A DNA stretch of 32,000 nt. Origin: Okeania sp. (GTDB lineage: Bacteria > Cyanobacteriota > Cyanobacteriia > Cyanobacteriales > Microcoleaceae). The position numbers were made by a program, and so were the translations under genes. This document shows, one piece after another, positions 4,602-25,169 of this stretch. Each line of letters starts with the position of its first letter. Position 1 is the first letter of the stretch. The stretch is from contig NZ_JAYKGW010000171.1 of the NCBI RefSeq assembly GCF_035285525.1, positions 30,001-62,000 of the forward strand. The letters run 5' to 3'. The notes under the pieces are model-generated. The model was not told where the DNA came from and ran no database searches. It saw only the letters and a list, made by a program, of their open reading frames with translations.

Positions 4602-5100
4602 ATGGACAACCAACCTAAATCCCTAGTTTTCCTAGATACCAGTATTTCCAACTACCAACAGTTAATGGAGGGTATAGACCGTAATAATACTGAAATAATT
4701 CTGATTAATGGCAGTCAGAATGGCATTGAAGTAATTACTAATGTTTTGGCTCAACGTCAGAATCTCAAGAATATCCAAATATTGTCCCACGGGTCAGAAG
4801 GAGCCTTGTATTTGGGTAACAGTAAGTTGGATAGTAGCAATTTGCAGGATTATAGTGCCCAGTTGGATACCTGGGGCAAAGCTATGACTAATGGTGGGGA
4901 TTTTCTCCTTTATGGGTGTAATGTGGCCTCTGGGGATGGTAAGACTTTTGTGGAGGAGTTGAGTCGGATTACTAGGCGTGATGTGGCTGCTTCTGAGGAT
5001 TTGACGGGGAGTAGTGTCCGTGGGGGTGATTGGGATTTGGAGTTTAAAACGGGGGATATAGAGGCGCGATCGGCTTTGCTGCCGGAGGTGAGGGCTAATT
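4602..5100 (+). other. DUF4347-type N-terminal domain
   Basis: Motifs LVFLDTSISNYQQL..ILSHGSEGALYLG..LDTWGKAM..DFLLYGCNVASGDGKTFVEELSRIT..DVAASEDLTGSSVRGGDWDLEF match the pattern I know from the N-termini of giant RTX/cadherin-like proteins. Confidence 0.7.

Positions 5101-25169: not shown

Follow-up and report, generated by a model that had tools for sequence, protein, structure and literature searches.

Introduction

RTX proteins as a class are substrates of type I secretion systems (T1SS) and are defined by tandem GGxGxDxUx nonapeptides that bind Ca2+; RTX genes are most abundant in cyanobacteria, with 35 in Trichodesmium IMS101 (PMC3034196). SwmA, oscillin, and Sll1951 are cyanobacterial extracellular Ca2+-binding RTX proteins linked to the S-layer, surface fibrils, or motility (PMC3034196). 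They are far smaller (646–1741 aa or ~130 kDa) than the protein reported here.

The RTX adhesins LapA, MpIBP, and AhLap are giant, acidic, Cys-poor, and Ca2+-dependent, lack a signal peptide, and have a C-terminal RTX beta-roll followed by a tail. Their ligand-binding modules bud from split domains, within the C-terminal RTX region or close to it (PMC12077191), and a special globular domain, the retention module, is located at the extreme N-terminus (bioRxiv 10.1101/198937). MARTX toxins are giant RTX/T1SS proteins with an autoprocessing Cys protease of clan CD. The C80 CPDs of MARTX and large clostridial toxins combine a clan-CD fold with a His...Cys order (PMC13323088), and CPD cuts after Leu (PMC2780291). 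Tce1 (PA0256) and Tce2 of Pseudomonas aeruginosa are T6SS effectors of the DUF4347 type (PDB 9QPE). Tce1 is a DUF4347 protein (PMC8262886); both effectors are termed 'putative' proteases, and the His and Cys of Tce1 superpose on the catalytic dyad of the TcdB CPD (PMC13323088).

Here we describe a megaprotein from a MAG of Okeania sp. that has the properties listed above for the LapA-type adhesins, including a distinct globular domain at its very N-terminal end. It differs from them in having no long array of near-identical Ig-like extenders, in carrying lectin-like modules at the N-terminal end too, and in having no lapG/lapD or lapEBC genes nearby. In addition, its N-terminal domain is DUF4347, with a predicted clan-CD fold, and not a retention module. 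In plan the megaprotein is similar to MARTX, and its N-terminal head is related to the CPDs in fold and His...Cys order. However, this protease-like domain is N-terminal and has no conserved basic InsP6 pocket, and the host is a free-living phototroph. Tce1 (310 aa) and Tce2 (190 aa) are small and are loaded into the Hcp3 ring, whereas a 6855-aa RTX megaprotein cannot be Hcp cargo.

Results

The window (the whole 32-kb stretch of Okeania DNA that was analysed) contains one ORF with an ATG start that encodes 6855 aa without an internal stop and fills 64% of the window (Table 1). With a window GC of roughly 40%, the calculated chance of 6855 stop-free codons is ~e^-446. The encoded protein is acidic and nearly Cys-free (D+E 17.4%, K+R 8.5%, one Cys). 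The original prediction had described the ORF and its composition in these terms, and both descriptions hold. We looked for a signal peptide or TM helix in the protein and found neither. The window had zero matches to Rfam, and promoter and terminator scans gave scores no higher than those of shuffled controls.

Table 1. Positions of the features at the Okeania megaprotein locus, numbered from the first nucleotide of the window
Feature	Residues (aa)	Position (nt)	Strand	Basis or remark
GldG-like gene		2357..3937	+	left border of insertion site; not part of system
Megaprotein gene, 6855 codons + stop		4602..25169	+	WP_324237703.1, Okeania sp. MAG
DUF4347 head	6–172	4617..5117	+	clan-CD (caspase/legumain/CPD-like) putative Cys protease
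His63-Gly64 of head	63–64	4788–4793	+
Cys106 of head	106	4917–4919	+	only Cys of the megaprotein
Beta/gamma-crystallin-like module	174–255	5121..5366	+	weak; Pfam E = 1.4e-4, below cut-off
PA14/GLEYA lectin-like module	257–383	5370..5750	+	Pfam E = 9e-14 and 8e-8
Calx-beta-like beta-sandwich modules (candidate)	405–790	5814..6971	+	sub-threshold Pfam only; resembles aa 1149–1259
Laminin_G_3 (LamG/concanavalin-like) module	802–958	7005..7475	+	Pfam E = 2e-26
Reelin-subrepeat-B-like module 1	1023–1137	7668..8012	+	Pfam E = 2.5e-26
Calx-beta region	1149–1476	8046..9029	+	Pfam Calx-beta at aa 1398–1476; self-similarity
Seven 55-aa repeats	1480–1865	9039..10196	+	self-similarity; DNA repeat 165 bp x 6.1
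~125-aa repeats x 2.5	1880–2196	10239..11189	+	self-similarity; beta modules without family assignment
FG-GAP/VCBS-type repeats	2202–2483	11205..12050	+	Pfam E = 3e-16
Reelin-subrepeat-B-like module 2	2623–2736	12468..12809	+	Pfam E = 1.4e-27
PPC (pre-peptidase C-terminal) x 2, Calx-like module between	2920–3283	13359..14450	+	Pfam and self-similarity
X domain, N-terminal half	3663–3871	15588..16214	+	conserved; no Pfam model
Insert splitting X domain, ~808 aa	3872–4679	16215..18638	+	self-similarity, DNA repeats, alignments of relatives
X domain, C-terminal half	4680–5170	18639..20111	+	alignment to relatives
Conserved post-X region	5171–5500	20112..21101	+	collinear alignment with relatives goes on; no Pfam match
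Calx-beta module	5505–5611	21114..21434	+	sub-threshold Pfam E = 2e-4; resembles aa 1360–1473
RTX block 1 with cap	5627–5860	21480..22181	+	11 strict nonapeptides
Two complete amino-acid-type SBP modules	5895–6205, 6222–6534	22284..24203	+	SBP_bac_3, Pfam
Acidic T/E/D-rich linker	6535–6639	24204..24518	+	38.7% D+E, K+R 0
RTX block 2	6640–6790	24519..24971	+
C-terminal 65-aa tail		24972..25166	+	candidate T1SS secretion signal
DUF4340 gene		25343..25960	+	right border of insertion site; not part of system

Pfam annotation recovered most of the modules proposed earlier and added DUF4347, giving a mosaic of DUF4347, PA14/GLEYA, Laminin_G_3, two Reelin_subrepeat-B-like modules, Calx-beta, FG-GAP, PPC, two SBP_bac_3 modules, and HemolysinCabind. 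PA14/GLEYA, LamG, Calx-beta, FG-GAP, and PPC are adhesin-like. The lectin-like character claimed for the N-terminal end was borne out for PA14 and LamG, whereas the crystallin-like module stayed below the Pfam cut-off; a homologue search with an N-terminal query matched crystallin-annotated proteins at E ~1e-23. The two Reelin-subrepeat-B-like modules are 50–53% identical to each other. Pfam placed PPC at aa 3208–3283, and self-comparison matched aa 2929–3000 to aa 3198–3277. From sub-threshold matches and internal resemblance, aa 405–790 probably consist of Calx-beta-like beta-sandwich modules.

The largest repeat array, seven copies of 55 aa with 65–77% identity, may be propeller-like and is missing in the Trichodesmium and Planktothrix relatives. 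Other arrays have no more than four copies. Thus, there is no long monotonous extender, as had been predicted. All tandem-repeat periods in the gene are multiples of 3, and near-identity at the DNA level is confined to one repeat, 105 bp x 2.9, in the array at 16498–16804. The sequence comes from a MAG; this 105-bp repeat could have been given a wrong number of copies, but the frame would stay.

The DUF4347 head matched PF14252 over the entire profile (positions 1–164 of 164) and above the Pfam gathering score (187.3 bits compared with 24.6). H63, G64, and C106 are invariant in alignments of 34, 29, and 13 DUF4347 sequences; the pattern scan used a subset alignment because the full alignment is too diverse. 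An AF2 model of the head (pLDDT 97, pTM 0.92) places the His-Gly and the Cys each after a beta-strand. Searching this model with Foldseek gave Tce1 (9qpe_G; E = 1.4e-5, TM 0.57) as the best match, followed by legumain, caspases, and CED-3, with probabilities of 0.97–1.0 and moderate TM-scores of 0.37–0.57. A profile alignment with ~21% sequence identity covers both the HG and GC motifs and puts H63 and C106 onto the His and Cys of Tce1. These models and alignments show a clan-CD (caspase/legumain/CPD-like) fold for the head, in which the His-Gly...Cys dyad is invariant, and mark it as a putative Cys protease.

Among relatives, DUF4347 was N-terminal in every protein surveyed (32 of 32 and 91 of 91). 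Exactly one Cys, always within DUF4347, was found in 14 of the 32 and 44 of the 91, and outside this domain Cys occurs in the X-domain giants at 0.14 per 1000 aa. The invariant His-Gly and Cys at canonical strand ends, together with the retention of this Cys in giants otherwise free of it, point to a thiol nucleophile. Leu171 is almost invariant at the C-terminal boundary of the domain. The DUF4347 alignments contain no invariant Lys or Arg able to form an InsP6 pocket, so activation of the head by InsP6 is unlikely. Canonical RTX repeats are missing in 47 of 63 complete DUF4347 proteins and therefore the head is not tied to RTX-type export.

Downstream of the N-terminal modules is a conserved region, here called the X domain, that occurs in at least 1,844 representative protein clusters, mostly giants. 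A Pfam search of the central region at E ≤ 1 returned nothing credible, and a sequence search of aa 3301–5500 against the PDB gave zero matches. An AF2 model of the X domain, built from an eight-sequence alignment, reached a pLDDT of only 48.9; Foldseek found nothing significant with this low-confidence model (best E = 0.24), and its matches to pore-formers are meaningless. The domain is split by an insert in which a linker rich in E/K/S, with a 35-aa x 3 array, precedes repeats of 66 aa x 4 and 104 aa x 2.5. The length of this insert varies among relatives from 0 to ~1000 aa.

At the C-terminal end, the hallmarks of type I secretion that had been noted earlier, an RTX region and a short terminal module, were both found. 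HemolysinCabind matched in 10 stretches (Pfam E = 1e-58). The strict GxxGxDxUx nonapeptide occurs 17 times, distributed over two blocks (aa 5645–5771 and 6679–6760), and several runs keep the nine-residue register. The tandem Ca2+-binding nonapeptides that define RTX proteins (PMC3034196) are thus present in the megaprotein. The 65-aa tail contains the most hydrophobic 19-mer of the whole protein, and its alignment with the C-termini of two other proteins in our set (P0131 and P0132) runs through to the last residue. None of the NCBIfam T1SS C-terminal target models matched. T1SS signals have no sequence consensus, and we infer that the tail may serve as one.

The SBP module matches 4z9n_A end to end (E = 5.5e-62). 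The SBP pair behaves as a present/absent cassette between the RTX blocks and is missing in the Trichodesmium relative. By analogy with characterized RTX adhesins, the SBP pair and the X-domain insert may each be a projected ligand-binding unit. For RTX adhesins such as LapA and MpIBP a 'split-domain' rule is known: ligand-binding domains near the RTX region arise from split domains. The Okeania megaprotein conforms to it both in the SBP cassette between its RTX blocks and in its divided X domain. The original prediction that this protein departs from the usual RTX-adhesin plan is therefore correct as to the uniform extender, which is absent, but not as to the SBP pair, which sits between two RTX blocks and does keep to that plan.

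The protein is not a singleton. Trichodesmium, Hormoscilla, Elainellaceae, and Planktothrix each have collinear giants, so that these are known from at least four other genera. The Trichodesmium relative (P0211) covers 69% of the megaprotein at 48% identity, the Elainellaceae relative (P0140) covers 73%, and the Planktothrix relative is collinear over aa 629–6796 at 36–54% identity. The Hormoscilla protein (P0189) is a further collinear relative, and P0001 is a truncated one. Independently assembled, intact ORFs of relatives with 6082, 6366, and 6571 aa have a collinear module order; the Planktothrix orthologue is broken by at least seven frame changes in two assemblies. The megaprotein is a member of a large uncharacterized family, mainly from filamentous cyanobacteria. 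From N- to C-terminus, the family plan is a DUF4347 head, a series of lectin-like, beta-sandwich, and propeller-like modules that varies between proteins, the X domain, which can be split by a repeat module, one or two RTX beta-roll blocks, and a C-terminal tail. The Okeania megaprotein fits this plan, with its amino-acid-type SBP pair between its two RTX blocks.

The neighbors in the window are genes for a cyanophycinase-like protein (a reading of the translation), TrmD, GldG-like and DUF4340 proteins, XisI/XisH remnants, and a pot-type ABC importer. GldG and DUF4340 lie next to each other in the closest relatives, separated by 130–584 bp and without a megagene, and the orthologous megagenes of Hormoscilla, Trichodesmium, and Planktothrix have unrelated neighbors. 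The megagene is a lineage-specific insertion between GldG and DUF4340, so its neighbors are uninformative about its function.

As predicted, no genes for a T1SS (ABC exporter, membrane-fusion protein, TolC-like protein), LapG/LapD, or an acyltransferase occur within the 32-kb window. What had been considered unusual, an 'orphan' gene, is the norm for the DUF4347 family: a large ABC-exporter gene is missing nearby at 78 of 80 loci with a DUF4347-headed gene. At the two exceptions, in Calothrix (L016) and Lusitaniella (L033), the DUF4347 gene is directly beside an HlyD-family protein and a T1SS-type exporter with cNMP/C39-like/ABC_membrane/ABC_tran domains. Two exporter-linked loci among ~55 cyanobacterial loci are not clearly above the ~0.8 expected by chance, a rough estimate that assumes a few exporter pairs per genome. 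Unlinked exporters are known for RTX genes.

Discussion

On balance, we think that this megaprotein is a giant Ca2+-dependent protein, most likely exported by a T1SS encoded elsewhere in the genome, that probably functions as a multivalent adhesin or matrix protein of the surface or sheath and has a protease-like head. T1SS substrates exit the cell C-terminus first, so the N-terminal head would be the last part to reach the exporter. The head may fold early and act as a stopper that retains the megaprotein at the cell surface, and/or it may be a cis-acting protease that frees the passenger by cleavage. The LapA retention module plus the LapG protease would then have an equivalent built into the megaprotein itself. 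No (T/P)AAG site for LapG occurs in the first 200 aa, where the sole AA ('DVAAS') is within a predicted strand. We infer such a stopper or release role for the head; the anchoring partner had been called unknown, and the N-terminal DUF4347 domain with the only Cys, which had been overlooked, is the best candidate for anchoring or release. A more specific version, which we regard as conceivable but rather doubtful, is that DUF4347 is a self-contained 'plug-and-release' module. It would fold at the N-terminus, halt C-terminus-first export at its final step, leaving the passenger on show at the cell, and then cleave itself off, perhaps after Leu171. The near-invariance of Leu171 at the domain boundary compares with cleavage after Leu by CPD (PMC2780291).

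Were this version true, a cis-acting clan-CD protease would take the place of the trans-acting LapG/LapD system, and cyanobacteria, proteobacteria, and planctomycetes would have an unrecognized release switch in common across hundreds of their giant surface proteins. More generally, a head that worked in cis for release or anchoring would be a new way to hold and shed T1SS megaproteins and would connect the family with the Tce T6SS effectors, which were described recently. What looked like an oddity now belongs to a defined family, whose plan combines a protease-like head retaining the only Cys, a widespread unannotated core domain, and swappable ligand-binding cassettes. Okeania and Trichodesmium form mats, colonies, and blooms, and giant surface proteins are plausible drivers of adhesion between filaments and to particles and epibionts.

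Other explanations differ mainly in what the head does. Clan CD includes transamidases. The head could be non-hydrolytic, either a transpeptidase or ligase, as legumain and the GPI transamidase can be, that covalently fixes the N-terminus to an envelope component or a structural plug in which the Cys and His have another role. The strict N-terminal position of DUF4347 suits anchoring, and no activity has been reported for the DUF4347 family (PMC13323088). However, the invariant His-Gly and Cys at canonical strand ends and the Cys kept in Cys-free giants indicate a thiol nucleophile, which would serve hydrolysis and transpeptidation alike, and we consider a non-hydrolytic head unlikely. It is less likely still that the protein is not an adhesin but a MARTX-like platform for toxins or effectors that is released from the cell, with a CPD-like head that processes the polyprotein after secretion or is itself a payload against grazers, epibionts, or competitors. 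The head is related to the T6SS-delivered putative protease effectors Tce1 and Tce2 and by fold to the MARTX and TcdB CPDs (PMC13323088), and MARTX toxins are likewise giant T1SS-exported RTX proteins. By contrast, Pfam and NCBIfam detected no MARTX A/B/C repeats, Peptidase_C80, or effector or toxin domain, the alignments lack the invariant basic residues of an InsP6 pocket, the head is at the extreme N-terminus rather than internal, and the module types (lectin-, Ig-, and propeller-like) are those of adhesins. Membership of the MARTX group is rejected because C80, the repeats, and effectors are all absent.

The megagene lies between the GldG-like and DUF4340 genes on the same strand, and this ABC-2 auxiliary system might be its export or gliding partner. 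This is highly improbable given that both genes are adjacent without the megagene in the closest relatives and that the megagenes of Hormoscilla, Trichodesmium, and Planktothrix have other neighbors; a functional tie was rejected on synteny. We also think it very unlikely that the 20.6-kb ORF is an assembly artefact (chimeric or collapsed repeats) or an unexpressed relic. In favor of an artefact or relic are the MAG source, a closely related Logan assembly that ends just upstream at window position 4025, the frame changes in the Planktothrix orthologue, and the truncation of P0001. Against it are 6855 codons without a stop, repeat periods that are all multiples of 3 with only one near-identical array, and collinearity with the independently assembled intact ORFs of relatives. 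The megaprotein ORF is intact, real, and conserved.

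ORF and domain composition of the megaprotein

The megagene is one ORF of 6,855 codons within the window (4602..25169, +), and at the window GC content of about 40% the calculated chance of a stop-free run of this length is ~e^-446. Its product is acidic (D+E 17.4%, K+R 8.5%) and contains one Cys, in agreement with the original prediction of a single giant, acidic and nearly Cys-free protein. An exact-sequence look-up matched it to WP_324237703.1/MEB3342272.1, which is annotated as "DUF4347 domain-containing protein" and comes from an Okeania sp. MAG (contig of 79.4 kb). No signal peptide or transmembrane helix was found in the protein, and its sole hydrophobic 19-mer lies within the last 25 residues.

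The RTX hallmarks read from the sequence were borne out by 17 strict RTX nonapeptides, spread over two blocks, and by a HemolysinCabind match in Pfam (E = 1e-58). Other Pfam matches were to PA14/GLEYA, Laminin_G_3, two Reelin-subrepeat-B-like, Calx-beta, FG-GAP, PPC and two SBP_bac_3 domains. These support the proposed SBP modules and, among the lectin-like modules, PA14 and LamG; the crystallin match is weak. As anticipated, a long uniform extender is missing: no array is larger than seven copies of 55 aa that share 65-77% identity. The only near-identical DNA repeats are 105 bp x 2.9, and because every tandem period is a multiple of three, a copy-number error would leave the frame intact.

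A large family sharing the X domain

The protein had been described as an orphan, and a word-indexed search returned few relatives. Exhaustive searching with HMMER, using aa 4675-5233 as the query, found 1,844 clusters (representatives at 50% identity) at E <= 1e-3, with 220 at E <= 1e-30. The matches were mostly in the C-terminal third of proteins of 2,000-7,900 aa. This region, in the X domain, is covered by no Pfam model and no PDB sequence, and prediction from an 8-sequence alignment gave no usable fold. Named members come from Trichodesmium, Hormoscilla, Elainellaceae, Drouetiella and further cyanobacterial MAGs, and also from Microcoleaceae and Planktothrix; the annotations are generic in all.

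In whole-protein comparisons, the megaprotein was collinear with an Elainellaceae protein (P0140, 6571 aa; 73% query coverage, ~40% identity) and a Trichodesmium protein (P0211, 6082 aa; 69% coverage, 48% identity), and the relative P0136 was 56% identical across aa 4135-6851. Each of the Hormoscilla and Trichodesmium megagenes is a single unbroken ORF, and their assemblies are independent. Because the megaprotein is collinear with independently assembled relatives, this conservation strongly opposes an assembly chimera. With these relatives and the X-domain clusters, the protein is no singleton; it belongs to a large uncharacterized family. The Planktothrix locus (L004, L005; CP136572.1, 1925444-1948746) remains collinear over aa 629-6796. 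At least 7 frame changes, identical in two assemblies, break it into 8 or more ORFs; the locus is a pseudogene or else its sequence carries a systematic error. P0001 (986 aa; L006 8862-11822, L007, L008) is truncated and corresponds to the first 1127 aa of the megaprotein at 64-71% identity; in three assemblies, its Reelin-B-like module is followed by a divergent C-terminal tail. In L006, nifB/nifZ/nifT and part of a DDE transposase gene are found close to it.

The differences among relatives involve entire cassettes: the 55-aa repeats, the second Reelin-B-like module, the second PPC, the SBP pair and an insert in the X domain. In P0131 and P0132, the match to aa 3663-3871 runs straight on into aa 4680-5706. 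This direct joining of 3871 to 4680 indicates that ~808 aa (3872-4679), made up of an E/K/S-rich linker followed by 66-aa and 104-aa repeats, are inserted inside the X domain. Its two halves are 9 to ~1000 aa apart, depending on the relative. Each SBP module is a complete amino-acid-binding protein fold (NCBIfam; end-to-end match to 4z9n_A, E = 5.5e-62), and the pair sits between RTX blocks 1 and 2; the Trichodesmium relative lacks both modules and the acidic linker. The claim that the protein departs from the usual RTX-adhesin plan thus holds for the missing uniform extender but not for the C-terminal half, where the split-domain SBP and X inserts obey known RTX-adhesin logic.

Coordinates of features in the Okeania window and at the loci compared
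Feature	Location	Strand	Remark
X domain	aa 3663-3871 + 4680-5170; window 15588-16214 + 18639-20111		widespread, conserved
Insertion borders	window 3938-4601 and 25170-25342		flank 20.6-kb megagene
Truncated XisI	window 26005-26244	-	profile positions 34-110 of 110
Truncated XisH	window 26523-26729	-	profile positions 36-86 of 134
Exporter module	L016 3254-8763		Calothrix sp. HK-06; adjoins DUF4347 gene
Exporter module	L033 13106-19878		Lusitaniella coriacea; adjoins DUF4347 gene

A protease-like N-terminal head

The most interesting element of the protein, missing from the original prediction, is its protease-like head. Residues 6-172 match DUF4347 (Pfam, 187 bits), and the sole Cys, C106 (LLYGCNVA), lies inside this head, 43 residues past ILSHGSEG. 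H63, G64 and C106 do not vary in any of three family alignments (34, 29 and 13 sequences). In an AlphaFold2 model of the head (pLDDT 97, pTM 0.92), a beta-strand precedes the His and the Cys alike. Foldseek comparison with the PDB placed Tce1 (9qpe_G) first, followed by legumain, caspases-3/6/7/8 and CED-3, at probabilities of 0.97-1.0 and moderate TM-scores (0.37-0.57). In a profile alignment, H63 and C106 fall on residues 77 and 131 of the 9qpe_G chain, counted as Tce1 His186 and Cys240 by taking the 201-residue chain as residues 110-310. On superposition, these two Tce1 residues coincide with the catalytic dyad in the cysteine protease domain of TcdB, and the Pseudomonas aeruginosa effectors Tce1 and Tce2 have been termed putative cysteine proteases (PMC13323088). 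PA0256 (Tce1) is itself a DUF4347 protein (PMC8262886). Together, the model and alignments show a predicted clan-CD fold with an invariant dyad, and DUF4347 members are putative proteases.

We surveyed the head in the best 150 of the 1,844 X-domain clusters plus the query. DUF4347 was present in 32 of these proteins and always started within the first 50 residues; 14 of the 32 have exactly one Cys, always within the domain, and Cys outside it occurs at 0.14 per 1000 residues. Among members lacking the head, 64 of 119 have no Cys. A genome scan with DUF4347 motifs gave at least 600 matches (599 of 600 confirmed), and the best 80 loci were mainly from filamentous cyanobacteria, with proteobacteria, planctomycetes and one Lentisphaeria MAG. 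In 70 of the 91 ORFs at these loci, the domain began within 60 aa of the first Met, and in the other 21 at a distance of 61-250 aa; 44 of the 91 have a single Cys, which always belongs to the domain. Since this Cys never shifts its position although the rest of these proteins avoids Cys, its conservation is best explained by a functional thiol. The literature searched, in which DUF4347 is named by only four papers and by none in this setting, contained no description of a family-wide N-terminal clan-CD head or of the X domain, and both are specific, testable features.

At the same 80 loci, 13 of the 91 ORFs have a leader of 60-250 aa with a LEPR-like motif (LEPRxLF) ahead of DUF4347; they come from non-cyanobacterial lineages (L034, L038, L047, L058, L063, L065, L069, L070, L072, L084, L090, L093); the Okeania protein lacks this motif. 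Tandem pairs of DUF4347-headed genes occur at L018, L027, L045, L047, L048, L052, L054, L077, L090 and L091.

Export route and proposed mechanism

As a class, RTX proteins are exported by T1SSs. No group has more of them than the cyanobacteria, with 35 in Trichodesmium IMS101, and exporters not linked to their substrate genes are on record (PMC3034196). As originally noted, the window holds no T1SS, LapG/LapD or acyltransferase genes; giant orphan RTX genes are ordinary in Okeania's clade. A large ABC exporter lies near the DUF4347 gene at only 2 of the best 80 loci, L016 and L033. Both share one operon-like module, made up of a PPIC-type rotamase, an ABC protein (cNMP-binding, C39-like, ABC_membrane and ABC_tran domains) and an HlyD-family protein, which fits T1SS export of the family. 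By a rough estimate that assumes a few exporter pairs per genome, ~0.8 linked cases are expected by chance among ~55 cyanobacterial loci, and the two observed are not clearly above this. RTX repeats, always C-terminal, occur in only 16 of 63 complete DUF4347 ORFs at the best 80 loci. We consider it quite likely that the Okeania megaprotein is exported by a T1SS. In Cohaesibacter (L009 14011-20071), four genes lie downstream of one for a DUF4347-cadherin protein that lacks RTX repeats; they include membrane-fusion-type BSH proteins and a weak Peptidase_M50 match, and may be a different export system.

With its RTX repeats and DUF4347 domain, the megaprotein is best filed as an RTX/T1SS surface megaprotein of a large uncharacterized family. 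Unlike LapA-type adhesins, it has neither a retention module with a LapG site nor a uniform extender, and unlike MARTX toxins, it has no C80 domain, MARTX repeats or effector domains. It would leave through an unlinked T1SS, Ca2+ would drive its folding outside the cell, and the lectin-like, propeller-like and SBP modules could then bind multivalently. The head would reach the exporter last and might act as a stopper and/or as a cis-acting protease or transpeptidase controlling retention or release, by analogy with the LapA retention module in its TolC-like pore and LapG (bioRxiv 10.1101/198937). Leu171, near-invariant at the DUF4347 boundary in alignments, is a candidate cleavage site because toxin cysteine protease domains (CPDs) cleave after Leu (PMC2780291). 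CPDs, however, cut on their own N-terminal side, so this is only a lead.

Genomic setting of the megagene

The flanks, with a cyanophycinase-like gene (read from its translation), trmD, XisI/XisH remnants and a pot-type ABC importer, are consistent with a cyanobacterium. The GldG-like gene upstream has its four closest relatives at L094, L096, L097 and L098 (66-74% identity); there, GldG and DUF4340 are separated by 130-584 bp, and PotA follows DUF4340 in the three whose contigs reach that far. Because the two genes are normally adjacent, the megagene is a lineage-specific insertion between them. Elsewhere, the genes next to its orthologues are unrelated, so its neighbors in the window are uninformative on function; the family's genes evidently move. 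The XisI/XisH remnants sit between DUF4340 and potA, and the syntenic relatives gave no match to XisI. A 99.7%-identical strain (L001, Logan assembly, SRR19514071) matches window 2070-4025 only, its contig ending just short of the megagene. Upstream of about 2070 it has a T2SSE/PilB-like gene where the window has trmD, a strain-level rearrangement.
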